DNA of 64,000 nt from an uncultured Phycisphaerales bacterium (GTDB taxonomy: Bacteria > Planctomycetota > Phycisphaerae > Tepidisphaerales > Tepidisphaeraceae): contig CAVWVQ010000003.1 in assembly GCA_963758525.1 (NCBI GenBank), forward strand, positions 672,001-736,000, read 5' to 3'. The notes beneath the pieces were generated by a model, which searched no databases, was not told the DNA's origin, and saw nothing but the letters and a program-made list of their open reading frames with translations. Position 1 is the first letter of the stretch; every line of letters starts with the position of its first letter. This document shows positions 13,015-31,386 of this stretch, in pieces. Made by a program: the position numbers and the translations under genes.

Positions 13015-14425
13015 CTATCTGAGTCGAACATCCTGCGTCGAGGCTGGCAACCCCGCGGATCGATCGGGAAAATGATCGAACTCCAATTTCACCACCATCA
13101 CTGTATCAGCCAGCTCATTGGCAGGGAGGTTGCGAAGCCGGAGACATTTTTTCTGCCCGATGTATTCGCTGGGAAGCAACTCCACCGCAAACTCGACCGG
13201 GCGTCCATCATTCAGCAGCGTCGCCCGCCTCGGCGCAACATCAATGGGCCCGAGCTTCACAGCTTCGGTCAATGGCTCGCGATGCAGATGAACGTAGAGA
13301 TTGTTTCCCTTGCGCGTCAGCAATACATTGCGGTTGGAAATCAACTCAGAACAGGGCTCCGCGTTCTCCATCGCTTCCTTCACGGCATTATACCATTTGC
13401 CGATGCGCCCGAGGATCGCTGTTTCGTTGGGGCCGATCGTTCCATCAGACATGGGACCGACGTTCAGCAGATAATTGGCATCGCGCGCCAGATACTTGTC
13501 AATGCTGCGCATGAGGTGAACGTCGGTGTAGTAATCCTCGTCCTTTCGGAAGCCCCAGCTTTCGCTGCCGACCGACTGATTGGCTTCGGTCAGCTTGTCA
13601 AACCGCAAGACCTCTTCGCCCGTCGAATCGTAATCGCGTTCTGGCGTACCGAAGTCGCCGGCATCGTAGCCGCGGTTGTTGATCACCGCGGCCGGCTGCA
13701 GTTTGCGGATCATGTCGTTGATCGACGGGTCGTGGTGCTTGTCCACGTTCATGTCCCACCAGAATTCGTGGATCTGGCCGTAGTTCGTGCAGAGTTCGCG
13801 AACCTGCCCCTTGACGAAATTCCAGATACTTCGCCAGATCCGGCTCGTCGCCCGCCTGCGGCGGCAGTTCGTGGTGCCGGCCCTGATTCGGGTAGTTCTT
13901 TTGATGCCAATCAACGCACGAATAATACAGGCCGAGCGGAATCCCTCGCCGATGACACGCATCGGCCAGCATCTTCAGCACGTCCTTGCCGTATGGGGTG
14001 TTGACGGTGTTGTAGTTCGTGAGCTTGCTGTCCCAGAGGCAGAACCCGTCGTGATGCTTGGTCGTCAGGCAGATGTACTTCATGCCGACGCTCTGCAGCA
14101 GATCGAGCCATTTGTCCGGATCGAAATTCACCGGATTCCACTGCTGCTGGAACTTCTGGTACTCGGCGCGTGGTACGCGGGCGCGCCACTGATATTGCTC
14201 GTGCCAGGCGGGGATGGAATACAATCCCCAGTGAACGAACAGGCCGAACCGCTTCTCGAAAAACCAATCTCGTGCGTCGTGGAACCGAGGCGGCGCGGAG
14301 GGCATCACCGGCTGCGTCGCAACGGCGCCGGCCGCCGACGCCGATTGAAGGAGTGCCGGGGTACCAGAGCATCCCGAGGCGATCGCGGCGCCCGCGGCGG
14401 TGCGAAGGAAATCGCGTCTGTTCAT
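13015..14425 (-). CDS. Alpha-L-fucosidase (GH29), Tat-exported; one frameshift at ~13819
   Basis: MNRRDFLR twin-arginine signal; WFFEKRFGLFVHWGLYS, LTTKHHDGF, then QVRELCTNYG...WWD, INNR, NYLLNVGP in the next frame. Confidence 0.88.
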
Positions 14426-14590
14426 TATCATCATCCCATGCAAGATACGTGATTGCAGGAATAACTAGCGGGTTTCTGGAAATTTGTTGCGGTGGTTACC
14501 GGAATAGCTGCGATCCCCTCCTCGATGCGAAATCTCAGACTCGCCACGAGGGTGTAACTTTTATTTGTGGCGATTGCAGATTTTGCGATT

Positions 14591-14658
14591 GTAGGGCGGG
14601 ATTCATCCCGCCGTTTTCTCAGCCGGCCAACAAATCGGCGGGATGAATCCCGCCCTAC
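14591..14658. repeat. GTAG-type REP doublet (REPIN-like inverted repeat)
   Basis: GTAGGGCGGGATTCATCCCGCCG (14591-14613) and its perfect reverse complement (14636-14658); each arm is itself an imperfect palindrome. Confidence 0.85.
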
Positions 14659-14734
14659 TCGGAGCCGATCGCCACTTTCGAGCGCCACACCCCGCCACGA
14701 TTGGCGCATGGGGAGCATTACCCCACGTTAGACA

Positions 14735-15226
14735 TTGAACGAGCGGCCGGTGTATGCGACAGGCTGCGTGGGCGCGCTCCTGGCGATCGCCATTTTTTCA
14801 ATGTGGCGGCTCCTCCCTCGCCATCCCCGTAATCTCGTCGGCCCGGGCCGGGCGTTTTTCACCACCGATGATGGCAAGACCTGGTTCACCGGGCAGGCGA
14901 CCGATATTCCCCCGCTCGCTTGCGGCGGCAAGACTGCCTATTGGGTTGAGGTCTACCGGTGCTCGCGCCGCTCGTCATTTGCCGTGAACCTCGAAACATT
15001 CGATCCCGCGGACAAGGCGAAAGTGGACCAAGCGATCGCCAGCGGTCGCGACTGGAACGATGTGGCGCACCTGATGTCCGGGCTCCATATGCTGGTCAAG
15101 AAGCCGGGAGATGAGAATTGGATCGCGGAAATCCCCGAGAATGAGAGCCGTTTTCGACAGATCATCCGACCGGTGTGTCCCGATGGATCGGCAGACGGAC
15201 TTGAAAAGGTCGATCCGAATGAATGA
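14735..15226 (+). CDS. Uncharacterised membrane-anchored 'pilin-partner' protein, copy 1 (in-frame TAG at 14729 after an upstream ATG at 14708)
   Basis: N-terminal TM helix, AFFTTDDGKTWF, YRC, LVKKPG..W, CPDGSADGLEKVDPNE; aligns by eye with three downstream copies. Confidence 0.75.
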   Translation: MNERPVYATGCVGALLAIAIFSMWRLLPRHPRNLVGPGRAFFTTDDGKTWFTGQATDIPPLACGGKTAYWVEVYRCSRRSSFAVNLETFDPADKAKVDQAIASGRDWNDVAHLMSGLHMLVKKPGDENWIAEIPENESRFRQIIRPVCPDGSADGLEKVDPNE

Positions 15227-15662
15227 CGCTGCGGCGCCTTGCCGATGCGGCCGTGTACTTGTGCAGTAAGAAATTTGTTGCAGCGGTTCTGGAATAGCGA
15301 CCAGTCCTTGATGACGGAGCGCACATTCCAACGCCCTTTACGCTTCGATCGTCGGGAGTTTGCCAATCGAATAATTACAGTAATCGAGGCGTCGATAAAG
15401 TGCCGAGTTCGGACGGAACGGGCTCCGCGACGTATCAGGCAGGAGATTCCGGCGCAGGTAACACCAGTTTTCAGAATGGTTTACCACGACGAATTGAGTG
15501 AACCCGGGCACGCAAGGTGACTTCGCGCAGATTGTCAGGCAATTATCGTTGTGCAAATGGTCATCCGGTCGCTAGGATACCAGATAGCGAGGATGCCAAA
15601 ATTGTTTTCATTTCCCTGCCGGCGAGGATTCGATGATCGCAGGACAAGATTCAACGTCGAGA

Positions 15663-16565
15663 ATGAACCATGGCACGATGAGCAGACGTCTGCGGGAGCT
15701 TAGCCGCTCCCGCCGGCCCTTACACGGTTTTACCCTCGTCGAGCTTCTCGTGGTCATCGGAATTATCGCACTCTTGATATCGGTGTTATTGCCCGCGCTG
15801 AGCAAGGCAAGAATCGCGGCGCAGCAAATCAACTGCCTCTCGAACATTCGTCAGTTGTCGAACGCGGTGCAGATGTACGCCAATGACAACCGTTGGCGGC
15901 TTCCGCGATATACAACCAACGTCGCCACCACCGAAACGCCGAAATGGAAGATGAATTGGGTTGGGCTCATCTTTCCGTACACGAATTACAATGCCCAGAT
16001 TTTCGAGTGCCCGATGCGCACTTTTATCAGCACCACGATCGGCACGCAGACAATCGGCAATATGACATACAAGGCGCGGCTTTGCTATGCGGTGAACGGC
16101 ATGATCGGTGGTGGTCAGACAAACCAGAATCAGAGCTGCCCGTTTGGTCCGGTCTACGATCACGCGAGCACGATATCGCCCGGTTACTTCGACGACAGCA
16201 ACGAACATACGTTGAAACTCTCCGATGTTGCGTACGATACCATCATGCTGACAGAGTCAATGCGCGCGGGAGGCGAGCAAAGCATTTCTGAATTCAACAC
16301 CGTACCGAATGGCTACGCCGGCATCCGCAGCGTGTCGTCGAGCAATCACAACGGAAGATCCGCATCCTTCGCTTATGCCGACGGACATTGCGAGACTGTC
16401 AGCATTCAGTATATGATGTACGACTCACATTACAGGGTTGATACAGCCAACACGCCGTCTGTTGGCGTTGTCGGCAATAATAACTCCGGAGCCGGAGATG
16501 TGCTTATCAACTACAATAACACAAATCAGCCCCAGGGATACTGGACTGCCAGAGGGAACGACTAG
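15663..16565 (+). CDS. Prepilin-type N-terminal cleavage/methylation protein with H-X9-DG motif (DUF1559-like), copy 1
   Basis: Basic leader then [54 protein letters not shown]. Start could be 15633, 15663 or 15678. Confidence 0.9.
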
Positions 16566-16599
16566 ACGGTCAGCTGTGCAGATTCAGAAGGATCCCACA

Positions 16600-17109
16600 A
16601 TGGGCGTTCGCGAGAGGCTAAACGAAAAGCCCGCGCTGGCAGCCGCTGGTATTGTCATCCTGCTGACAGTCGCAGCTTATTTTTGCTGGCGAGCGATCGA
16701 TCATCCTCCCAGGGCAATCGCTGGGCTGGGTAAGGCTTTTTTTTCAACGGATGATGGCAAAACGTGGTTCACGGCCCCAGCCTCGAACATCGCGCCCTTC
16801 GACGACAATGGCACGACAGCTTATCGCGTTGAGGTCTATCGTTGTTCGCACGGTTCGGCTTTTGTCGTCAATCTGGAAGCTTTCAGCGCGGAGGACAAGG
16901 CAAAAATTGAGCGCACCATCGCCGACGGACAGGACAGCAGTGCAGTGCGCGGGATGGAAGCGGACGCTCCTCCTCTCGTGAAGAAGCCCGGAGACCGTGA
17001 GTGGGTAAAAATGACCGAGAAGAACGAAGCGCGATATCGCGCAATCGCAAGGCCGGTCTGTCCGGACGGATCGGCCGACGGACTGGAGAAGGTGGATCCA
17101 AATGAGTGA
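16600..17109 (+). CDS. Uncharacterised membrane-anchored 'pilin-partner' protein, copy 2
   Basis: AAGGA then ATG 16600 (MGVRERLN); TM helix; AFFSTDDGKTWF, YRC, VKKPG, CPDGSADGLEKVDPNE. Confidence 0.85.
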   Translation: MGVRERLNEKPALAAAGIVILLTVAAYFCWRAIDHPPRAIAGLGKAFFSTDDGKTWFTAPASNIAPFDDNGTTAYRVEVYRCSHGSAFVVNLEAFSAEDKAKIERTIADGQDSSAVRGMEADAPPLVKKPGDREWVKMTEKNEARYRAIARPVCPDGSADGLEKVDPNE

Positions 17110-17198
17110 TCCCGACGGAATCCGAATATGTGGAATGGCTTTTTTTTTTGGCGTCACGAGAGTGACGCGTCTCGGTCTGTTACGAGGAATGAAATCCG

Positions 17199-18125
17199 AT
17201 GAGCCTCCCGAAACGCACATCCAATTGCTGGCCTGCTGCCCGGAAACGAAATCGCATTTCGAGGCTCAAAGCATTTACGCTCGTTGAACTGCTGGTTGTG
17301 ATCGGCATCATCGCCACGCTGATCGCACTGCTATTGCCCGCGCTGAGCGCCGCCCGCTTCGCCGCAGGCCAACTCAAGTGCCTGTCGAATGTCCGGCAAC
17401 TGTCACAGGTGATCAATATGTACGCTGCGGACAATCGAGGGTATTTGCCCCGATTCAGCATCACATGGTACAATACGAGTTACACGACGATTTCCGCTCC
17501 AAAATGGAAATACAATTGGACCGGCCTCATCTTTCCCTACACGAACAAAAGTACGAGCCTCTTCGAATGCCCCTTGAGGCAATTCACCAGCAATAACGTG
17601 GGACAGATGTCCTCCTCCATCGTGGGGAATGCGGTCTATCTGGCCAGGCTTTCTTATCAGGTCAACGGAATCACCGGTGGAGGCAATGCGAATAAATGCC
17701 GGGCGTACGATCACCCATTCGGCGAAGTTTACGATGTCTATGTACCTGCCAATGGGGGCTTTAATGATTCAGAAAACACAATGCAGATCAGCAACGTTTC
17801 TCCACGCTGCATTATGCTTCTTGATGGATGGCTCGACGAGACAAGCATCAAGATTTTTGGCAATGATAAGGTTGACTCAAACACAAACGGTTATGGATAT
17901 GGGGAAGTCACTGGAATCCCTGTCAGCAGCCATAACGGCAAGTCGGTCTCAATTGCATTCTTTGACGGCCACTGCGAAACGGTGCAAACCAGCTATTTAC
18001 TCTCCGACGTGAACTACGGACACAGCGCGGTACAAGCCAATGGAGACTTAAATATACCTTATAATAACACCGGTTTTGGGGGCAAGGGATTTGGGGGCTA
18101 TTGGGGCGCCGAGTTTGCGCCTTAG
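17199..18125 (+). CDS. Prepilin-type / H-X9-DG protein (DUF1559-like), copy 2
   Basis: [56 protein letters not shown] upstream of the ATG. Confidence 0.9.
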
Positions 18126-18164
18126 CAGTCCTTGCGAAGCTAAGGTTTTGCCGGCCGGTCCGCT

Positions 18165-18704
18165 TTGGCAACATTGCACCTACCTGGAGCATCGACGGCT
18201 TTGCGCGACGTTCTAAACAAATACCCGGGTTATGCGATTGCAGGCGTGGTTGTCATCATGCTGGCAGGATTTTACACTGCATGGAAGTTCATGGATCAGG
18301 GGCCTCGGAAAATCCAAGGCCTGGGACAAGCGTTCTACTCTGTGGACGACGGCAGCACCTGGTTTCGAGCGCCAGCATCCAATATTCCTCCATTCGATCA
18401 CGACGGCAAGCTTGCTTACGAAGCGGAAGTCTTCGAGTGCAGGCACAGCTCAGCTTTTGTGGCAACTCTGCAAAGCTACCCTTCCAACGTCAAATCTCGT
18501 CTGGACAAAGCCATCGCCGACAACCGCCCCACCGCCGAGATTCTCGACATCGAAGCCAGGAATCCGCCGATGGTGAAAAAGCCGGGCTCCTCGGCTTGGA
18601 TTAGCCTTACCCCGCAGACCGGACCGCAATACATGCAGGCGGTCTCTCCAATTTGTCCCGACGGCTCGGCCGACGGTTTGGCGCGAGTGAATCCCAACGA
18701 TTGA
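18165..18704 (+). CDS. Uncharacterised membrane-anchored 'pilin-partner' protein, copy 3 (ACG at 18195 where paralogues have ATG)
   Basis: TM helix; AFYSVDDGSTWF, FEC, VKKPG, CPDGSADGLARVNPND. Start uncertain: TTG 18165, ACG 18195 or TTG 18201. Confidence 0.8.
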   Translation: MATLHLPGASTALRDVLNKYPGYAIAGVVVIMLAGFYTAWKFMDQGPRKIQGLGQAFYSVDDGSTWFRAPASNIPPFDHDGKLAYEAEVFECRHSSAFVATLQSYPSNVKSRLDKAIADNRPTAEILDIEARNPPMVKKPGSSAWISLTPQTGPQYMQAVSPICPDGSADGLARVNPND

Positions 18705-18834
18705 CCAGATTTGTCCGCATCATGAGGAAATGCTGGAATTTCGAAAGATTGTCAGAAAATAATGCTTGTTTTGAAAGACGCTACGATGCTAAAATGCTGA
18801 ACGGCGAAGAGAGACGAACTTTGTCCACTTCCTG

Positions 18835-19791
18835 TTGGGAATCAACCAATTGAATACGGACACGAGACACTTGACCGAGCGAACATTAAAACGACGTGTT
18901 CCGCATCGCAATGCCGGTTTTACGCTTGTAGAGCTTCTGGTGGTGATCGGCATCATCGCAATTCTCATATCGATTTTGCTTCCGGCACTCAGTAAGGCGC
19001 GGATCGCCGCCGGCCAAATCAGCTGCCTATCAAACGTTCGTGAGCTGAGTTCGGCAATTCAAATGTATGCCAACGACAATAAGTTCTATCTGCCGAGGTG
19101 GACTGCCGCTTTTCCTAACCACGCCGTTACATCGACATGGAGATGGGGGTGGTGTCCTCTTGTGCTTCCGTACACCAACTTCAATGTGAAGGTATTCGAG
19201 TGCCCTGTCCGCCAGTATTACGAGACGACTAGCCCGGGCACGATCACGTTAGGGGTGGCCAAATACCAGGCGCGACTCGGTTATCAAGTCAATGGGATGC
19301 AGGGTGCCGGCAACGCCTCAAAGTTGAGGACCTATGACCACCCATTTGGAGCGGTATACGACTATCCGCTTGCGTCGAATTCATTCCAGGATTCAATGAA
19401 CACCATGAAGATCACGCAGGTGGGCCCGTACACGATCATGATGACCGATTTCGTACGGGGCGGCGGTGAGCAGAGCTGCAATGATAACGGCAGCTTCACC
19501 ACGAGCGCCAAGGGCGCCACGGACTATTCGGATATCAGAAACGTCTCTGCGAGCAGCCATTACGGAAGGTCGGCGTCGATCGCGTTCTTTGATGGACACG
19601 CGGAAACCGTCTCCACAAGTTATCTGCTGTATGATGCGACTTACCGCATCAACAGTGGCGCAAGTCCTACGGTTGGACCAGTCGCCAACGACGCCAGCGA
19701 AGCTGGCGATCTGCTCATCAATTTCTACAACAGCAGTTCTCCACCTCCCAGCCGTTGGAGCGCACAGTGGTACCCCGGCGCGCCGTTTTAG
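18835..19791 (+). CDS. Prepilin-type / H-X9-DG protein (DUF1559-like), copy 3
   Basis: [55 protein letters not shown]. Only TTG starts are available (18835, 18850, 18871). Confidence 0.9.
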
Positions 19792-19826
19792 AAAAGCTCA
19801 ACAAATAGCAATCCTCGCAGAGCCGT

Positions 19827-20333
19827 ATGGGAATCCGCGAAATCTTGAACCAGAAGTCAGAGTACGCGATTGCCGGGATCGTTGTCGTTATAATCATCGC
19901 TGCAATAATCTGCTGGCGATCTCTCCCGGGTGATCCCAGAGGAATCACTAAATTGGGGAAGGCATTCTATTCAACCGACGACGGGAAGACCTGGTTCGTC
20001 GACGATGCCTCGCACATCCCTCCATTCGACTACGACGGTGCAACCGCCTATCAAGCCCAAATCTTCAAGTGCGCCCACGGCGGACAATTCATCGCTTATT
20101 TGCAGAGCTACAGCGCGGCTGACAAAGAAAAAATCGAAAAGGCCATTGCGGACGGTCAGTCCGGAACCGACGTCCGCGGCTTGGAACTCATTCTTGGCTG
20201 CGCGGTGAAGAAGCCTGGCGAAAGCAACTGGGTAAAGAACACCCCTGCAAGTAGCGCACTCTATGCGGAAATCACCAAACTAACTTGTCCGGACGGCACG
20301 GGCGACGGGCTTGAAAAGGTCGATCCGAACTAG
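19827..20333 (+). CDS. Uncharacterised membrane-anchored 'pilin-partner' protein, copy 4
   Basis: MGIREILN, TM helix, AFYSTDDGKTWF, FKC, VKKPG, CPDGTGDGLEKVDPN. Confidence 0.85.
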   Translation: MGIREILNQKSEYAIAGIVVVIIIAAIICWRSLPGDPRGITKLGKAFYSTDDGKTWFVDDASHIPPFDYDGATAYQAQIFKCAHGGQFIAYLQSYSAADKEKIEKAIADGQSGTDVRGLELILGCAVKKPGESNWVKNTPASSALYAEITKLTCPDGTGDGLEKVDPN

Positions 20334-21561: not shown

Positions 21562-24500
21562 ATGAAAATAAGAAACTTACTCTGTAAAGCGGCTGTCATC
21601 GCTGGCGTGTACACGGCGGGTGCTTTTCCGATCGCCCTGCATGGGGCTGAGGAAGTACCGCTTCCGGCAACACCGCCGCAGGATCAGGGGCTCCCCTACA
21701 CGCGCACTGCCCGCGCCAGAGCATTGGAAAATATTCGCAATTGCCTGGTGGTTTTCCCCGGCAGTCGATATGCCTATGTCAACGGCCTGGAGGTTCGCCT
21801 CGACGAGAAGAACTGGCATGACGAGGCGCTGGCGAAGGATGGAACTGTTTTCGTTCCGCAGAGCGCGGTCTCGCTGGTGGAGTTGGCAGACGTCAAGGCG
21901 GGCCCTGCTCCTTCCTACCTTGCCGACCGGTGGATCTACACGCTGTTGCGACCTGCCGTCCTCCTGCCCCGGGGTGTTGCGACGATTGACGTCGACGGCC
22001 GGCCTTACGTCGACTTGATCGCCTACGCCAGGGCATTGCGGATCAAGACGTATCAGCATGCGCGCGGGTTTGTCCTGATCGGCAGCGATCCGCCAACGCT
22101 CGAGAAGCTTTCGCCGCCCCTGCTCGATTCGATGGTCACGCTTTTCGACACGCCCGAGAAGTTTGCGGATCCGGACATCGCCACCAGATACATTCCCACT
22201 CTCATCAGGCAGGGGAAGTGGACCGACCATGTGAAGGTCACCGCCGAACAGCTCAAGATTCTCAACGGGCCGGAGACGAAGTGGCCGACGGCGCCGCAGT
22301 CGTCATACGACTTCACGGGATTCAATTACAAATTACTCGGCTCCAAAGTTCCGCCGCCGGGGGTCTATCCACGTGTTCTCTTCAGCCCCGAGGACGTGCC
22401 GATGCTGGCGGAGCGAATCAAGAGCAGTCGCACCGGCCAGATGGCGCTCATTGAGATGAAGTATCTCTTCGAGAAAAGCTGGTGGAATCCCAAGACCAGC
22501 GACGGAGTGATTTTCCAGAAGCTTGCCAGCGGGGACGTCGCGGGGCTGGAGTTTGACTCTCCGCCGAATATCTCCCCCACCGCCATTTCCAATTTGTTCA
22601 AGGGCCAAAAGCCTGGCATTTTCAATACACACATCCAATACAACCCTGAATGCCTGACGGCGATGGCGCTGTATTGCCTTCTGACCAATGACGACGTGCA
22701 TGGACGTCAGGCGGCCGCCGCAATCGCAAGCTTTTACAAGTTGCGCGAGCCGATCCTCGACGAGGTCAACCAGATCAGCGACACGGAGTTTGGAGGGGTT
22801 TATGTACGCCCCAATGGCGAGACAATCACCATGGCGGGCAACGGCGCCGTCACACACTGGCGTACGGTGCAAAACGTCATTTCGCACATGAATCTGGGCC
22901 TTTCTCTCGACTTTGGCGGCAAGTGGATGACGCCGGAAGAGAAGGACGTCATGCGCCGCGTCATCGTGAAGGCGACCTACGGCAAACGCCCGTATGGTCA
23001 GGACGGATCGATCCGTTTCCGCGATGTGAATTGGGTCGCCTGGGATCTGCCGCCGTTTCTCGCTGTGACGGCGATCGAAGGTCTGGAGGGATTCGACCGC
23101 GAGGCGTACGAGTCCGACTGCGCCACTGTCCGGGCGTTCTGTGATTGGGGAATCGACGAAAACGGCGTGATCTACGAGAGCAACGGGAAGACACCAGGAA
23201 GCCTGCAGTTTCAGACCCTCTCCATGATCACGCTCGCCCGTCGCGGTGAAAACCTTTTCGGTCATCCCCACTGGCGGAAGTTGCTGGAGGGCCAGATCGA
23301 GATGACCTCCCCCAGCGGCCGCGTGACGGTCAACAGCGGCACGCAATACGTTCCCTACAGCCGCCAATACTTCTCGCCGCAGATGATCGATGAATACAAG
23401 GCCTTCTTTCCCGACGAGCGCAACGCGGACTACCTGCTCGGCCGCGCCAAAATGTTTGTGGAAGAGGGCATGGACCAGGAGACGATGCGCGAGTGGTCGC
23501 TCTTTGACTTCTCACCCGACGAGTACCGGGCGAAGGTGGCCAGCATCCTACGGCTTCGCCTGCCGAGCCCGACCTATCCCGGCTTCGTCCATGGCATGCT
23601 CTACGACACCGACATCCAGCCCACAACACGTGCCGATCTGAAGCTGCCGCTCGACTTCAACGACCCTATCCATGGCGTCTTCTCCAGCTACAGCGACCAG
23701 ACTCCCAATGCGACGTGGATCAACATGATGGTGCGGCCCGATCATTACATTGGCGCCGGCCATCATCATTCCGATGCCGGCATGTTTCACTTCTCCGCGC
23801 TGGGTGTGGACTGGTTCACGCAAACGCAGTTCAGCGGGAATTACGAGGGGAAATACTACAACCTGGTGCAGGTGGACGGTCATTCCGAGCCAGAAGTGAT
23901 GCCGGGAGGAAACGCCTACCAGGCCGCCGCGACCTACCTCGGCGCCAACTCAAGTGCTAATGGAGCATTCGGCAGCGCGGATCTGACCGACTCCTACAGT
24001 TATCGCTGGCAGACCCAGCCGGCGCCGGTCTGGCCGCCCAATTCCAGCTCGATGGGATGGGAGATGGAGCCGTCCCCGCGCATCCTCGAGATGTTTGCCG
24101 GGACGGCGCATTACAAGATGCGCTTCTGGTGGGCCAACTACAACTACTCCAATTACATGGCCACCAGCCGCGCACCGTGGAATCCGATGCAGTATGTCTA
24201 TCGCAGAGTGGGACTCGTCCGCGGCAATCATCCCTACGGCGTGGTGATTGACGACCTGAAGAAGGACGACGCAACGCATCTGTACCAGTGGGTTGCCATG
24301 CTCAATGGCGGGGTCTGGCAGGCGAAGGTCGACGGACTTCCCGCAGGCCAGATCGCGCTGGCCTTCCGCGAGCAGGATCCGAAATCGAACGGAATGATCC
24401 GCGCGGGCGAGCCGCCGATCGTTCCCCAAAATGGCGAGCCGTTGCTGCTGGTTTGTGCGCTGGGCGCCGGCGCCGATGCTGGCGGTCATCTGCCGATCGA

Positions 24501-24780
24501 GGTCACCACAGAAACCGGCCCGCCGGACAAGAAGGGCGCTGAACAACTCTACGCCCGGCTGGCCATCAACCACTCGGGAGCCGACGTCCACTTTAAGGTG
24601 CTTCTGATTCCGTTCAGAGCCGGCGAAGTGCTTCCCAGTCTGTCGTGCGATGCGGGCGCAAGCAAAGCGACGCTTGCATGGTCTGATCAGAACGACGAGC
24701 TGAATTTTGCATCTGACGCCAAAGGGCCGTCCGGAATCAGCGTGAGCCGCGGAGGTCAGAGCGTGCTGACCTCGAAATGA
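21562..24780 (+). CDS. Heparinase II/III-like secreted protein, paralogue 2 (1072 aa, extra N-terminal domain)
   Basis: Signal peptide; PPPGVYPRVLF, NWVAW, IEGLEGFD, YESNGK, ARRGENL, GHHHSDAGMF, GLVRGNHPY..IDD.KKD. Confidence 0.7.
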   Translation: MKIRNLLCKAAVIAGVYTAGAFPIALHGAEEVPLPATPPQDQGLPYTRTARARALENIRNCLVVFPGSRYAYVNGLEVRLDEKNWHDEALAKDGTVFVPQSAVSLVELADVKAGPAPSYLADRWIYTLLRPAVLLPRGVATIDVDGRPYVDLIAYARALRIKTYQHARGFVLIGSDPPTLEKLSPPLLDSMVTLFDTPEKFADPDIATRYIPTLIRQGKWTDHVKVTAEQLKILNGPETKWPTAPQSSYDFTGFNYKLLGSKVPPPGVYPRVLFSPEDVPMLAERIKSSRTGQMALIEMKYLFEKSWWNPKTSDGVIFQKLASGDVAGLEFDSPPNISPTAISNLFKGQKPGIFNTHIQYNPECLTAMALYCLLTNDDVHGRQAAAAIASFYKLREPILDEVNQISDTEFGGVYVRPNGETITMAGNGAVTHWRTVQNVISHMNLGLSLDFGGKWMTPEEKDVMRRVIVKATYGKRPYGQDGSIRFRDVNWVAWDLPPFLAVTAIEGLEGFDREAYESDCATVRAFCDWGIDENGVIYESNGKTPGSLQFQTLSMITLARRGENLFGHPHWRKLLEGQIEMTSPSGRVTVNSGTQYVPYSRQYFSPQMIDEYKAFFPDERNADYLLGRAKMFVEEGMDQETMREWSLFDFSPDEYRAKVASILRLRLPSPTYPGFVHGMLYDTDIQPTTRADLKLPLDFNDPIHGVFSSYSDQTPNATWINMMVRPDHYIGAGHHHSDAGMFHFSALGVDWFTQTQFSGNYEGKYYNLVQVDGHSEPEVMPGGNAYQAAATYLGANSSANGAFGSADLTDSYSYRWQTQPAPVWPPNSSSMGWEMEPSPRILEMFAGTAHYKMRFWWANYNYSNYMATSRAPWNPMQYVYRRVGLVRGNHPYGVVIDDLKKDDATHLYQWVAMLNGGVWQAKVDGLPAGQIALAFREQDPKSNGMIRAGEPPIVPQNGEPLLLVCALGAGADAGGHLPIEVTTETGPPDKKGAEQLYARLAINHSGADVHFKVLLIPFRAGEVLPSLSCDAGASKATLAWSDQNDELNFASDAKGPSGISVSRGGQSVLTSK

Positions 24781-24838
24781 GCTGGCGGAAAACCCGCGGA
24801 GCGAGATGAGAATGCAGATGAGGAACGACCCTCGAGAC

Positions 24839-25073
24839 GTTCTTCCCCCCTCTCCCGATATCGCGGGAGCGGAATGACGATGCAGATACCCAACGATATT
24901 CGAGTGGTTCTTCCCCCCTCTCCCGGTACGCCGGGAGAGGGTTGGGGTGAGGGTGATTTTGAATATCGAACGATTGTCGAAATTCGGAAACAGGAAACCC
25001 CGGCGAATCGAACAACTTTCAACGCTCCAAATCACCCTCACCCCAACCCTCTCCCGGAGTACCAGGAGAGGGG
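24839..25073. repeat. CCCTCTCCC-family palindromic element (long inverted arms ~24915-24958 and ~25029-25073, plus a degenerate extra unit at ~24839-24869)
   Basis: CCCCTCTCCCGGTACGCCGGGAGAGGGTTGGGGTGAGGGTGATT ... AATCACCCTCACCCCAACCCTCTCCCGGAGTACCAGGAGAGGGG. Confidence 0.85.
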
Positions 25074-26846
25074 CAAAGCGCGCCGGCATCATGCGACTTT
25101 ATTGGCGAAGATTGCGATCGCCATGATGATGCTGATTGCAGCGCGCTCATCCGCCGCCGAGTATCAATTCTCCGTCCCCACCGGCCCGCGCGATAGCCGC
25201 GCATTTCTTTGGATTCCCCCGCAGTGCCAGCATGTGCGCGGAATTCTCCTTGCCAGCCAGGTGATTCTTGAAAAGCGCGTCTGCGATGATCCGATCATCC
25301 GCGACGCATGCGCGCGTGAAAACCTCGCGATCATCATTTTGTATCGCAGCCCCTTTGGTGAATTTCATTACCACCGCGATCTGCCGCGGGCAAAAGCCAT
25401 TGAGAAAATCCGCGAGCTGGCAGCGGATCAGAAGATCGACGTCCAAATTGCTGACAAGAAAAGCGGAGCATCGCCACCCGATGCAAATCACTCCGACATA
25501 TCCAACGGCGAAACAGCAGATCAGATTCTCCAACGCATTCTCGACCGACTCGCTGGCGAGTCCAGCTATTCCGAAATCTCCACCGCACCGCTGCTAACCC
25601 TCGGCCATTCCGGCGGCGCCATCTTCGCCTGGAACGTCGCCTACTGCTGGCCGCAACGTATTCTCGGTCTGATCGGGCTGCATTCAGCGGTGATTCTCCC
25701 GCCCCCCTGGGATCCCAAGGCAACACCGGCTGGATTCCCCGCGCTGTGCATCAGCGGGGAATACGAGAGTTGGGGTAATCCCAGCGAACCGCTCGACAAG
25801 CACTGGCGCTGGCTCCGCGGCGGAATCCTCAACATGCGCGGCTGCTACGACGCCCAGGCGTGCGAGGTGGTTCAGCCGGGCTGCACCCACTTTAATTGGG
25901 ACACTCCACTCGCACAGGTCACGGCGAAGTTCATCGAGAAGGCTGCCCGCTATCGCATTCCTGCCGACGCTCCGGGGAACGAGACCAACCCAACGCAGCC
26001 CGCGCCCTGAAAACGCTGCCGATGGATTCTGGATGGCTGACGGATGTCGAAATGATGTCTCCCAGCCACTACCCCCCCGCTCCTTACTCCCAGTTCAAGC
26101 ACGATCCATCGCTCGGCTTCTGGCACATGGATGAGGAGATGGCGCAGGCAATCGAGAATTTCCCCAACTCCTATGGCGGAACGAAGGATCAGCGCGTCAC
26201 GTTTGTGCAGGACGGAAAGCCGGTCCCCGCAAAGTGGATTGATGAGCTGAAGTTCGAGCCGATCGACGACGGGATGACCGTAAAGCTCGCGGCAGACTTT
26301 TTAACTGAGACGCCGCAGGGCGTCGCCGGCGCGGGCCAACTGCTCGGACACGCCCCCGGACCCATCAAATTTCGCCTCATCGGCGGCTGGGGAGGCGGCG
26401 GCGAGCAGACCGGACCGGATACGTTTCGGATCCGCTTCGACCACTTCGGTCTCTCGCAGGGCTGCTGCAATATGCAGGTGATGGCCTACCAGGAGGGGGA
26501 CGCCATCTATAAATACGCCGAGCAGCCGTGCCAGATTTCTTTTCCTGAGAAGAACGCCGCGGGGGCAAAACAGACAATCAGCTTTCCGCAGATCGGATCG
26601 GTCAAGTGCACCGAGTCAATGATCCACCTGGGGGCTACGTCAGACTCAAAACTTCCGGTTAACTATCTGGTTCGTTGCGGCCCGGTCGAAGTAGACGGTG
26701 AGAACCTCCGCCTTACGCCCATCCCTCCGCGCAGCAAGTTTCCGATCAAGGTGACGGTGGTGGCCTATCAATGGGGTCGGCCGATCCCGCCGCTGGTGCA
26801 GACCGCGACGCCGGTGGAGCAAACTTTTTCAATCGAGAAGCCATGA
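24874..26846 (+). CDS. Uncharacterised secreted hydrolase-like protein A (GHSGG elbow, C-terminal beta-rich domain); one frameshift at ~26005; start uncertain
   Basis: AFLWIPP, LGHSGG, then LKTLPMDSGWL ... KVTVVAYQWGR in the next frame; colinear with intact paralogue 27058-28677. Break is in a CCC run. Confidence 0.7.
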
Positions 26847-26914
26847 ACGAATCGGCAGGAATTCAATCGCCCCGCGCGACCCTCGTATCCTACCGGCATG
26901 ACAGCGCGCTCTTT

Positions 26915-27032
26915 CCCCCTCTCCCGGTACTCCGGGAGAGGGCAGGGGTGAGGGTGATTTCGGATACGAACGACTGTCGACATTCCGAATCACCCTCACC
27001 CCAACCCTCTCCCGGAGTACCGGGAGAGGGGG
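26915..27032. repeat. CCCTCTCCC-family palindromic element, second full copy
   Basis: CCCCCTCTCCCGGTACTCCGGGAGAGGGCAGGGGTGAGGGTGATT ... AATCACCCTCACCCCAACCCTCTCCCGGAGTACCGGGAGAGGGGG. Confidence 0.85.
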
Positions 27033-27057
27033 CAAGACCCCTATATTCCTTTGGTCC

Positions 27058-28677
27058 ATGGTGGCGCTGTTTTGCTGCCTGTGCGGCAGCGCCCAGGCTT
27101 TTTGGAATTCGGAATATCAATGGGGGATCGAAATTCCCAAGCCGGCCAACGATCCTCTCGTCTGGAACAAGACCGATGCATTTTTGTGGGTGCCTCCCAA
27201 GTCACAGCACATCCGGGCGGTGTTGCTCGCCCCCGCGAACATTATCGAGCGGCGGATCTGCGACGATCCCATCATCCGCGCGGAAGCGGAGAAGGACGAT
27301 CTCGCTCTGGTCTATTTCCAGGCGGGCTGGAAGAGCCCGATCATGGAAACGCCGCGACTGCTCGAGTTCGTGCAGTCGGTGCTCGATCAACTGGCGGTGA
27401 AATCGGGATACGACGAACTTCGAACCGTCCCCTGGATCACGATTGGCCACTCGGGAAACAGCCAGTTCTGTCAGGCGATGGCCCGCCAGAAACCGGAGCG
27501 AACGCTGGCGAATATCGTCATCAAAGGCGCCTTGCCGGGAGTGGCGAAGGACGGGAACACATCCGGGCTGGTCGGCGTGCCGATCCTTTTCGTGACCGGG
27601 CAGTTCGAGGAAGTGATGCCGCCCGGGAAAGTGCGGGACGCCTGGTGGGGGGTGCAGATGAAACGCTTTGCCGACGCCAAGGCGGCGGTTCCGCAGGCGC
27701 TGATCACCGGGATGGAAGATCGCAGCCATGGACATTTGAACTGGTTTCCCGACATGTCCCGTTTTGTGGCTCTGTACATCCACAAGGCAATGGCCGCTCG
27801 ACTGGGCGATTCCGATTTCACGACGCTCAAGACGGTTCCATTCGACAGCGGCTGGCTGAGCGATCCGGCCGAGGTGAACCCGCCGGCGCCGGTCAGGGAG
27901 TACAAGGGAAATCCGCAGCAGGCGTTCTGGCACTTCGACGAGGAGATGGCGCAGGCATGGCAGACGCTTTACGACCGTGATCGAGGCAAGAAGGAACAAC
28001 TGCTGGCCTTCACGCAGGACGGCAAAATCTCGCCCTGGTGGAACGGTTGGGCGCTGCAGTCGTATGAATTTCGTCCGCTGGCAGATGGCATTTCGTTCAC
28101 CGCCGATGCAACGTTTCGTGACCAGGTCCCGCAGCCCTTTGCCGATGCCGGCACAAAGCTTGGGCACTCCACGAGCGGTCCAATCCAGTTCCAGGTGCTC
28201 GGTTGGGCCGGGGCGACTGAGCAGACCGGGCCCAACCAATTCCGCGTCCGTTTCGATCGCGAAGGGGTGAATGGCCGCACGCTTCATGTGCTGCTTGGGG
28301 CGATTCATCCTGGTGACGCGGAGTACCGCGAGACGGTGGCGGTCGCATCATTCGATCTTCCCGGCGGCAACCATGAGGGGACGAAGCAGAAGCTCACATT
28401 CGCGCCGATTGCGGATGTTCCCGCGGGAACCACATCGGTGGCTCTGCATGCCAGTTCCGATTCGGGGCTGAAGGTCGATTACTACGTTTCGTATGGGCCG
28501 GCGGTGATTGAAGGCGACGCGATTCGCCTGATGCCGATTCCCGCCAGGGCGCGCTTTCCCATCGAGGTGAAAGTGACGGCTTATCAGTGGGGCCGCTCGA
28601 TGGCTCCGAAGATCGCGAGTTCGGATTTTGTGACGCAGACGTTTCACATTGTGAAAGCCGCTTCACCGGGGAAATGA
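27058..28677 (+). CDS. Uncharacterised secreted hydrolase-like protein B (paralogue of 24874-26846)
   Basis: Signal-like VALFCCLCGSAQA; AFLWVPP, IGHSGN, GQFEE, GHLNW, DSGWL, GP.QFR.RFD, KVTAYQWGR. Confidence 0.75.
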   Translation: MVALFCCLCGSAQAFWNSEYQWGIEIPKPANDPLVWNKTDAFLWVPPKSQHIRAVLLAPANIIERRICDDPIIRAEAEKDDLALVYFQAGWKSPIMETPRLLEFVQSVLDQLAVKSGYDELRTVPWITIGHSGNSQFCQAMARQKPERTLANIVIKGALPGVAKDGNTSGLVGVPILFVTGQFEEVMPPGKVRDAWWGVQMKRFADAKAAVPQALITGMEDRSHGHLNWFPDMSRFVALYIHKAMAARLGDSDFTTLKTVPFDSGWLSDPAEVNPPAPVREYKGNPQQAFWHFDEEMAQAWQTLYDRDRGKKEQLLAFTQDGKISPWWNGWALQSYEFRPLADGISFTADATFRDQVPQPFADAGTKLGHSTSGPIQFQVLGWAGATEQTGPNQFRVRFDREGVNGRTLHVLLGAIHPGDAEYRETVAVASFDLPGGNHEGTKQKLTFAPIADVPAGTTSVALHASSDSGLKVDYYVSYGPAVIEGDAIRLMPIPARARFPIEVKVTAYQWGRSMAPKIASSDFVTQTFHIVKAASPGK

Positions 28678-28709
28678 ATGTTCAACTTACACCGCCGCGA
28701 CGGATTGCT

Positions 28710-28735
28710 CCCTCTCCCGGATTACCGGGAGAGGG
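28710..28735. repeat. Solo hairpin of the CCCTCTCCC family
   Basis: CCCTCTCCCGG-ATTA-CCGGGAGAGGG, intergenic. Confidence 0.8.
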
Positions 28736-28783
28736 GGTGAGTCGCCGGAAATTTTAAGAGTGCCTCCTTACGGAAGATCATTC

Positions 28784-31295
28784 ATGACGAAGCTTGCTCT
28801 CGCATTCCTCACGTTGATGTGCACCGCGCCCTTGCTGGCCTCCGCCCGCGACGCACCGCTGCGCTGCCTCCCCGGCGAGCCGAGCGCGGACGATGTGCTG
28901 AACGGGAAATACCCGTTTCCGCCATCGCCGGCGGTTGAGGCGCATGATGACTACACCGGCTTTGTTAAAGATCGGCTGACGAAAGTTCCACCGCCAGGCG
29001 TCCATCCGCGCATTCTCATCGGCCCCGACGATCTGCCCGACTTGCGGAAGCGTCTGAAGGAAACGGAAACCGGCCGCACGCTTCTCTCCAATCTCCGCAG
29101 CCGAATGGACGCAGCCGTTCGCAATCCGAACTTCTGGGGAAGCGACCTGTACGCGAAGCTCGCCGCGGGGGATGCCGGTGGCGCGCAGCGACTCCTTAAC
29201 GAGCATCATGGAATGCCGGAACCCGTCGGTCACTACCAGCCGTTCATCGGATCCTGTCTGGAAATGGAGTCCTTCGACGCGCTGGTGAGCGAAGATGCCG
29301 AGAAGGGAAAACGCGCCGGCAAGGCGCTGGCGACGTTCTGCCGAATGATCCAGCCCGCGGTCGAGAATGCCTTGAGCCAACCGCTGGGGGATGATGTCTG
29401 GCGCGTAAAGGTGACCGGTCCGACCACGGGCGATTGGTCGTCCGATCAGGGTGTTCGCGAACTGGTCGGATATCACCTTCTCGGCTACGCCTACGACTTT
29501 GCCTACAACTTCATGAGCGATGAAGATCGCGCCGCTGCCCGGCATCTCATTGCCACGATCATCGCCGGCCATGTCTGGATGGGCGCGCGACTCCCCCACC
29601 ATTGGCGCAACTGGAACTGGATCATGGTGGGGATGGGTGAGCCGTTGCTCTCGCTGGCCATTGAAGGAGAAGAGGGCTACGACCCGCGCGTGTACAAGAT
29701 GGGCGTTCAAATCGCCCGCGACTATTGCACCTACGCCATTTCCCCCAGTGGCGCCTCGACCGAGGCGGTGGGGTATACGCAATTTGGTTTTGTCTGGGGA
29801 GCGCCATTCATGGTGGCCGCCGCACGGCGCGGGGACAACCTGCTGGTGCAGAGCCATCATCGCGCCATGATCGACTGGTATCTCCAGACGATGGAGCCGT
29901 ATGGCAAATTGTGGCAAAGCCATGGGGACGGCGGTGTCACCGGCCCCGCGGTCTGGACGATGGCAATGTGGAAGTATTTTTATCCTGGCGATCCCAAAGT
30001 CGACTACCTCTGGCAAAACGCGCTGCATGCCGAAGGCGTCGAGCAACTCAAGACGAAGATCCACCAGGTAGAGGCGATGATCTGGGCGTCCGATCCAGAC
30101 AAGGATGCCAGCGGTCAGCCGATCAATTACGAAAACGGCGCGAAGCTGAGTGCGCCGCTGACGTGGTTTGATCCGATCCGCAGTTCGCTGATTGCCCGCA
30201 GCGGATGGTCGCCGGACGCGGCGGCGTTGGAGTTTGAGTGCCGCACCGACTCGGTCGGTTCCAGCCATGAGCACGCCGACCGGGGAAATTTCACCTTCAC
30301 CGCGCTCGGCCGCGACTGGGCGCGGGAGAGCTTTCGATCCATCGAATCGCGCCATCACGACTGCGTGCTGATCGATGGACTAGGCCAGGGCTTTTGGGGC
30401 GGGCCGGGCAAATGGCTCGGACTGAAAGACACTGGTTGGGCGCTGGTGGCCGGATGCGATGCGAAAGACGCCTACGACTGGTGGTGGCCCAAGGAAATCA
30501 CAACGGAAGATCCGGCGACGTTCATTCGCTTCAAATTTCCCAGGTGGGAATCGTATCTTCCGCAGGCCGAGGCGTTTCGCAAACAGTACGCCGGCGTCCC
30601 ACTGGAGCGCGACCCCCGGCCGTCGGTCGTGGCCCATTTCAAGGGATTTGAGCAGGGCGATCCGCGCATGTGGGACGAGGATTCCTGGCCGGTGCGCCTG
30701 CCGCACAATCCGGTACAACGCGCATTTCGATCGCTGGCATTCGTGCGCGAAGGGGACCCGTATCTCGTCGTTGTCGATGACATTCAAAAGGACGATCGCG
30801 AGCATCTCTACGAATGGCTGATGCAGACTGGTCCCGACACCGAGATGGCAAGTATCAAAGACAATGACATCATCCTCTGCGATGCCACGGTGCCGCGGCC
30901 CCGATGGCGTCGCCAAGCCGAGAAAGGGCGACCGTGAACTGCTCGTCCGCATCCTGCAAATGACCGACGCCGACCCGGGAACAGCGTATCAGGCGAAGCC
31001 CTCGGTTCGCCTGGAAGCATTTGAAAAGAAAGACACGACGTCGCCCGACGGCCGCTCGTTTGGTCTGGACAAACGGCTGGTGATTCCAAGCCGTTGCCTC
31101 GCGCCCAACTTCAAGATTCTCCTCTTCCCATTGCATGCCGGCGATCCGCTGCCGACCACAGCCTGGGACCAGAGCAACACGCACCTGATTCTCACCACCA
31201 GCCAGCAGAAGGACGAGATGACCTTCACCACCAGTGACGGCCGGACGAATCTTTCGATCCAGCGAGAGGGCAAGGAACCGACGGCCTTGCCGTGA
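28784..31295 (+). CDS. Heparinase II/III-like secreted protein, paralogue 3; one frameshift at ~30898
   Basis: Signal peptide; PPPGVHPRILI, NWNWIM, IEGEEGYD, ARRGDNL, SHEHADRGNF, PVQRAFR, VDDIQKD; C-terminal piece (LLVRIL...RLVIPS...FKILLFP) matches the paralogues. Confidence 0.7.
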
Positions 31296-31386
31296 TGGAA
31301 TGGAAGTTGGTCATTGCCCCTCTTCCGGAGCACCGAGACCGCTTGTTGTATGAGAGAACGAGAACAAATAGGAGTTTAAAGACCAT

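Follow-up and report, generated by a model that had tools for sequence, protein, structure and literature searches.

We analysed a window of 64,000 nucleotides from an uncultured Phycisphaerales bacterium (assembly GCA_963758525.1, contig CAVWVQ010000003.1, positions 672,001 to 736,000 of the forward strand), in which the genes from 14708 to 20333 form three tandem cassettes, each consisting of a large prepilin gene (A1 to A3) followed by a gene for a small partner predicted to be membrane-anchored (B1 to B3), and one leftover partner gene (B0). A and B very probably bind each other physically, a partnership supported by natural fusions of the two proteins and by the predicted structure of the A1:B1 complex. 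What is new here is an undescribed accessory family, B, attached to a known pilin superfamily. The genes of the array are the following (window coordinates; ORF, open reading frame; aa, amino acids; TM, transmembrane):

B0, 14708–15226, + strand: partner gene, with an ORF of 163 aa usable from TTG 14735 (14735–15226)
A1, 15633–16565, + strand: prepilin of 310 aa, G↓FTLVE cleavage site, DUF1559-like head, H-X10-DGH
B1, 16600–17109, + strand: partner of 169 aa with an N-terminal amphipathic helix, one predicted TM helix, a soluble domain of 129 aa and a conserved Cys pair
A2, 17199–18125, + strand: prepilin of 308 aa, A↓FTLVE, H-X10-DGH
B2, 18165–18704, + strand: partner with an uncertain start (TTG 18165, ACG 18195 behind GGAG, or TTG 18201)
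A3, 18835–19791, + strand: prepilin of 318 aa, G↓FTLVE, H-X10-DGH
B3, 19827–20333, + strand: partner of 168 aa

Coupling, fusion and predicted docking of A and B

The seven ORFs of the window lie on one strand in the order B-A-B-A-B-A-B with no gene in between, which confirms the uninterrupted alternation described in an earlier reading of the letters alone (the sequence-only reading). The distance from A to B is 34, 39 (69 to the aligned B2 start) and 35 bp, and that from B to A is 406, 89 and 130 bp. As measured with tblastn, A1–A3 are 45–51% identical to one another, and B0–B3, which are 163–179 aa long, are 37–54% identical in end-to-end alignments. The G+C content of the array is 54%, against 59–60% in its flanks. 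A2 is the outlier among the A proteins and B2 among B1–B3, as fits an A-then-B unit, and this, together with the same gene order across the genome, supports the proposal that the A+B cassette is what was duplicated. A B-then-A unit was rejected, since a pilin start lies less than 600 bp downstream of 7 of the 29 B copies of the genome, compared with 24 of 29 that stand behind a prepilin.

The association of the two genes extends beyond the window. Twenty-one of the 29 B copies lie less than 300 bp behind a prepilin ORF, and 24 start at most 1.5 kb behind a prepilin start when frameshifted pilins and one A-B-B tandem are counted, the five exceptions being B0, two fragments and two intact copies. 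Random placement, under a uniform expectation, would put a pilin directly upstream of about 0.3% of the B genes, and chance is thus excluded. The 149 loci retrieved from other genomes and metagenomes gave 145 distinct B matches, 30 of them too close to a contig end; at the 115 informative loci B is directly behind a pilin in 58 cases, fused to one in 4 and solo in 53 (three of these being second copies in A-B-B tandems), in a sample that is biased because the queries were pilin-linked B copies. In more distant genomes, three of the six genuine B matches adjoin a pilin, as read from their coordinates. The cultured Phycisphaerae strain Fontivita pretiosa (locus L094) also carries the cassette. 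The A-B-B tandems (loci L090, L093 and L096, and C3:4330032-4331082 of the same genome) and a convergent A-B / B-A arrangement at L078 indicate that the number of partner copies per pilin varies.

In addition, pilin and partner were found as single chains in relatives. A region search that started from a known fusion gave three fusion proteins (P0271, identical with L037, and also P0272 and P0273), in which an uncleaved pilin head ending in DGH is followed by the B soluble domain, with the DDG motif of B placed 43 residues after the pilin DGH; the two full-length proteins among them carry an annotated DUF3352-type N-terminus. The same junction is present at a contig edge in L109, while L071 is a similar fusion with a B from a distant clade, which suggests a second origin. 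The fusions all lack the B anchor, which puts the B domain next to the pilin head and on that head's side of the membrane. At L075, a pilin-like protein contains no more of B than its first 42 residues. Among 8,000 candidates, the B profile retrieved no B-containing protein of greater length, which is weak evidence. The internal uncleaved pilin helix and DGH head with fused B are found at L037:1861-4416 and L071:4915-7941, and the genome of the window itself has long proteins of the same pilin layout with no fused B, at C3:982224-983954 and C3:4222765-4224819.

The sequence-only reading had proposed predicting cognate complexes. For mature A1 (residues 20–278) with B1 (41–169), three runs scored 0.71, 0.64 and 0.01 (median 0.64), compared with 0.00 for the best of three controls; of 157 solved complexes, 116 attain the mark applied to this score, as do 2 of 215 mismatched pairs. 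The two passing runs have 58–72 confident interface contacts, the runs agree in at least 0% of their contacts, and the predicted local distance difference test score (pLDDT) of the partner is at least 70. In the best run B docks on residues 45–60, 73–88 and 108–112 of mature A1, away from the H...DG motif. This face holds the well conserved Tyr50, Asn54, Pro59 and Trp73, but its conservation as a whole does not exceed that of the remainder of A (p = 0.32). The predicted face of B is its most variable part (entropy 3.4 vs 2.0), and this variability fits a paralogue-specific pairing in the model, without showing one.

The distances among A and those among B are correlated in the 19 intact pairs (Mantel rho 0.27, p = 0.002; 2 of 21 pairs were dropped as frameshifted or atypical), also when two window pairs are removed (rho 0.27, p = 0.005), and three strongly supported clades, the window trio among them, are common to the two trees. 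In a tree of 152 B sequences, from which short fragments and matches very near contig ends were left out, the solo or linked status changes 22 times, against a mean of 41.7 after shuffling, and the solo copies gather mainly in one region, for which support is modest; as kin share labels, this pattern demonstrates clustering only. We infer from these trees and loci that a stand-alone B is conserved in many relatives, and that the cassette copies were probably expanded in the lineage of this bacterium.

Several observations weigh against a dedicated and specific partnership. Of the three runs on the A1:B1 complex, one scored 0.01, and the calibration counts hold only roughly for our own alignments. 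Close cousins of a true partner also pass this kind of test, so that the predictions leave specificity unaddressed, and the variability of the B face may reflect no more than the difference between surface and core. The two trees also conflict with strong support, A joining p17 with p18 and B joining p4 with p18, and co-divergence is in any case expected from tandem duplication or co-duplication alone, hence it is no demonstration of binding. In the genome of the window, B stands directly behind 21 of the 70 prepilin-motif ORFs and is lacking there at the other 49, in a count that includes secretion-system pseudopilins and frameshift fragments; in the relatives, 53 copies at informative loci are solo, without a pilin immediately ahead of them. 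Many of the Phycisphaerae families searched gave no B, which was found in 28 of 151 genomes of the class, 18 of the 20 in the host's own family included, and, with only 12 candidates scored per genome, in 8 of 301 phylum genomes, one of these a false match. Since the pilins are expanded where B is sparse, B is not universally needed. The claim that each pilin has a dedicated partner is only partly supported, as it falls short for most other pilins of the genome and for the solo copies.

Identity of the two protein families

By their sequences, A1–A3 are large prepilins of the DUF1559/H-X9-DG type, in an H-X10-DG variant. The three proteins share a basic leader, a G/A↓F cleavage site, Glu5 and a hydrophobic helix, which together characterize a class III signal peptide, and two invariant cysteines. 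TIGR02532 scores above its cut-off in all three, and PF07963 (N_methyl) in A1 (expectation value, E, 1.2e-6) and A3 (E 2.2e-8), with A2 just below. For SBP_bac_10 (PF07596, DUF1559), with a gathering cut-off of 23.3 bits, A1 reached 23.7 bits in one search and 22.2 in another, A3 reached 18 bits and A2 had no match, and only positions 2–59 of the 268 of the profile were matched. The motif had been read as H-X9-DG, a spacing that has to be corrected to H-X10-DG in all three proteins. TIGR04294 (H-X9-DG) matched none of A1–A3, either in a direct scan or among the seven matches of the genome at E ≤ 0.001 (150 of 176 candidates scored), which is consistent with the X10 spacing, also present in 11 of the 30 motif-bearing pilins of the genome. 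We found about 26 full-length relatives of A, several of which are labelled at source as 'prepilin-type processing-associated H-X9-DG protein'. The A helix matches geopilin by sequence (E 2e-11, profile positions 10–75 only).

Machinery for processing and assembly is encoded in the genome, with 2 A24 peptidases, 4 secretins, 11 matches to T2SSE ATPases and 3 PilT above cut-off. A pilin gene about 17 kb upstream of the window (C3:655028-655528) is frameshifted and is not followed by B; as judged by eye, it has N-terminal and internal motifs in common with the A proteins of the array. DUF1559-type pilins are expanded across Planctomycetales, according to the passages cited from PMC8567305. In Planctopirus, as described in those from PMC10632474, no paralogue group is larger than the DUF1559/H-X9-DG proteins, which number 68 and include two essential ones. 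In Fimbriiglobus, type IV pili help adhesion to biopolymers, as stated in the part of PMC11131199 cited here.

The description of B as uncharacterised held up, in that no Pfam or NCBIfam family and no solved relative emerged from the sequence and fold searches. B0–B3 have no Pfam match and a single NCBIfam match, at E 0.23, and among 150 B relatives no family occurs in more than two at E ≤ 0.01. The best PDB match by sequence (E 0.006) covers an Asp-box-like hairpin, S-x-D-D-G-x-T-W; the sialidase matches to this hairpin were taken as chance Asp-box likeness and set aside, and the same hairpin produced the one false genome match (L218). A profile built from the four B copies gave 1,605 representatives at 50% clustering, the atlas clusters closest to B contain hypothetical proteins and are most frequent in Planctomycetota, and the named genomes with B relatives are almost all Tepidisphaeraceae, Tepidisphaerales, Phycisphaerales or Phycisphaerae.

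The model of B1 consists of a short helix, a TM helix and a 129-residue alpha/beta domain (pLDDT 96, predicted template modelling score 0.88). The N-terminal amphipathic helix and the TM helix are conserved in the family, and hydropathy agrees with the membrane prediction for B1. The TM helix governed the outcome of fold searches that used the full-length model; with the soluble domain alone, the best match had Z 2.6, a root-mean-square deviation of 3.5 and 55 aligned residues, and Foldseek returned nothing at E ≤ 0.001. The fold of B may be one not yet solved, the lack of a match being no proof of a new fold. Both members of the Cys pair are present in 128 of 150 sequences and both are absent in 14, a paired pattern that points to a disulfide and to a periplasmic location, and of 27 B copies no more than 2 have a lipobox-like pattern. 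No description of the A+B pairing was found in the literature searched, with most subscription papers beyond that search, and it is absent from the passages available of PMC8567305, PMC10632474, PMC9934059, PMC10597711, PMC11685898, PMC11131199 and PMC1569441.

Array margins and genomic setting

B0 had been given a start at 14708, which is not borne out, since this ATG is followed by an in-frame TAG at 14729, after codon 7, and a start is possible only at TTG 14735. B0 retains 22 of 25 conserved family positions; its stop is outside the cover of the independent contig pieces listed, and the assembly is rich in frameshifts. In the slot expected for an A gene stands a palindromic, REP/MITE-like repeat (repetitive extragenic palindrome/miniature inverted-repeat transposable element) of about 144 bp (14550–14693, no strand applicable), defined by blastn matches and by an internal inverted repeat of 68 bp, which ends 15 bp ahead of the old B0 ATG. 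The element has 90 blastn matches of 100–499 bp in the genome, the 25 printed being 96–99% identical, and its core matches 177 genome places. No pilin remnant was detected upstream of B0 by tblastn. B0 has probably lost its pilin and, as an orphan, is itself decaying.

B2 carries ACG (18195) where its paralogues have ATG, with GGAG 5 bases ahead, and an independent contig that covers this start region has no differing letter; the ACG at 18195–18197 may thus be a mutated or non-canonical start. A promoter scan was at chance level, with 5 found and 3.7 expected, and a look-up listed no RNA data set that contains the sequence.

The window also holds genes for glycoside hydrolases (GH29, GH43, GH95-like, GH3 and GH28), esterases, a sodium:solute symporter and a LacI regulator, so that the placement of the array in a glycan locus, as first proposed, is true of the window. 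It does not distinguish B-linked pilins. Degradative carbohydrate-active enzyme (CAZyme) domains lie near 5 (and doubtfully 2 more) of 18 B-linked regions and near 7 of 20 B-less pilin regions of the genome, in scans of 81 of 134 and 76 of 133 candidate ORFs that left out short ORFs, pilins and B and had no random-region control. No glycan enrichment particular to B-linked pilins was seen in this comparison, and the similar frequencies indicate that the glycan setting belongs to these pilins generally.

PATR-repeat genes lie within 3 kb of 12 of 18 B-linked loci, compared with 6 of 24 B-less loci (Fisher p = 0.012), one of which is a frameshifted B-linked pilin, and 4.4% of random sites. The genome has 31 ORFs for such large repeat proteins, most with a PEP-CTERM-like tail, clustered at pilin loci. 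The link did not extend to relatives, where a profile made from the host genome found PATR at 1 of the 25 linked loci and at 1 of the 31 solo ones that are 6 kb or longer, and the array of the window is 20 kb from the nearest PATR gene. A D-2-hydroxyacid dehydrogenase gene is near 6 of the 18 B-linked regions (L178, L179, L189, L191, L192 and L193) and none of the 20 B-less ones, and in L179, L189 and L193 it lies between the gene for a PATR/PEP-CTERM protein and the pilin, with B last.

Next to the array, a GH29 alpha-L-fucosidase gene (13015–14443, − strand) is divergent from it and split over two frames; the frameshifts in many genes of the assembly are probably sequencing errors. Downstream, from 21562 to 34026, large + strand ORFs of 297–1072 aa have no Pfam match. 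The protein of 1072 aa has a His-rich motif which we take to resemble that of heparinase II/III-type lyases.

Proposed role of B and comparison with known systems

We give about even chances to the reading that B, tethered to the membrane, caps or chaperones the head of the pilin whose gene directly precedes its own. The domains of A and B would both face the periplasm, where the soluble domain of B, through its most variable helices, is predicted to dock on the end of the long pilin helix and the loops that follow. A would be cleaved by prepilin peptidase, while B, which has no prepilin signal, would stay in the inner membrane and not be built into the filament. There B may stabilise the large variable head of A and keep A in a membrane pool, from which A would be handed to the type II secretion or type IV pilus (T2S/T4P) machinery. 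More tentatively, the variable heads might differ in what they bind, with glycans or the proteins secreted from the locus as conceivable ligands. The stand-alone B of related genomes would serve pilins in trans, and the host lineage would have multiplied private copies.

The coupling, the fusions and the predicted complex would also fit a permanent two-subunit complex of the inner membrane, which would serve as a receptor or scaffold on the periplasmic side, stay out of any filament and use the pilin helix only as an anchor. The pilin heads of the fusions follow a long N-terminal domain and have no cleavage motif, hence they cannot be normal filament subunits, and in Tuwongella, according to the passages cited from PMC8567305, proteins with N_methyl and SBP_bac_10 fractionate unlike plain pilins. 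We nevertheless regard such a permanent complex as rather unlikely, because the leader, the G/A↓F site and Glu5 are intact in A1–A3, which suggests selection for processing, and because assembly machinery genes are present in the genome.

It is more doubtful still that B is a second structural subunit, which completes the pilin head, loses its anchor by cleavage and then joins the filament or the filament tip, as in the PilA-N/PilA-C pair of Geobacter. The gene order of pilin then small partner, the fusions that lack an anchor and the 58–72 confident contacts of the passing runs would agree with it, but A already owns a head of about 230 residues, the amphipathic and TM helices of B are conserved, and the lipobox-like pattern is confined to those two B copies. 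Slightly less probable again is that B is a passenger, co-duplicated or co-regulated with pilin genes and making no contact with their products. The many solo copies, partly clustered on the tree, the many B-less pilins, the partial conflict of the trees and the failing run all suit a passenger; against it stand the fusions in two separate B clades, the constant A-then-B order at scattered loci and in different genomes, and a complex score that greatly exceeds those of the controls.

In planctomycetes, few paralogue families are as large as the DUF1559/H-X9-DG prepilins, to which the passages of the papers cited assign no function. For these pilins the present data provide a concrete partner family, a predicted interface, natural single-chain fusions and three neighbouring candidate cognate pairs. 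If such pilins need private membrane-anchored caps, this would be a new kind of accessory subunit in type IV filament biology, although its patchy distribution means that B cannot explain the pilin family phylum-wide. A bolder and rather improbable extension is that Phycisphaerae possess a library of cognate two-protein modules, with the expanded H-X9-DG/DUF1559 pilins as the variable halves, in which an anchored partner of new fold grips each head and the pairs are loaded selectively onto T2S/T4P machinery for glycan capture or for routing of neighbouring exoproteins. If true, this would be a pilus-based counterpart of the SusC/SusD pairs of Bacteroidota; the genome has only 7 TonB-receptor matches.

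Among known systems, the Verru_Chthon cassettes (TIGR02596–TIGR02600) are also repeated cassettes with prepilin-motif genes, and they adjoin large repeat/PEP-CTERM proteins. The unit here has two genes, B matches none of TIGR02596–TIGR02600, and membership of A was rejected, with best scores of 27.9 bits against 70 for TIGR02596 and 14.6 against 256.5 for TIGR02599. In Geobacter sulfurreducens, PilA-N is a short pilin completed by PilA-C. As in the passages cited from PMC10597711 for that species, A is a pilin with a separate partner chain, and its helix matches geopilin, whereas A has 308–318 aa and a large head of its own, and B is anchored and present in 29 copies in the genome. B and PilA-C had no sequence or fold match in the searches made. 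The DUF1559 (PF07596)/TIGR04294 proteins of Planctomycetota share with A the cleavage motif, the length, the start of the DUF1559 region and the C-terminal H...DGH, and differ in that A has H-X10-DG, matches only the first 60 or so profile positions and has a specific downstream partner family. In the PilA/PilC pair of Streptococcus sanguinis, as described in the passages cited from PMC9934059, both partners are pilins, whereas B has no prepilin motif or solved-fold match; the two systems are alike in that one protein binds and stabilises a large pilin, as B is proposed to do, in a glycan-related setting.

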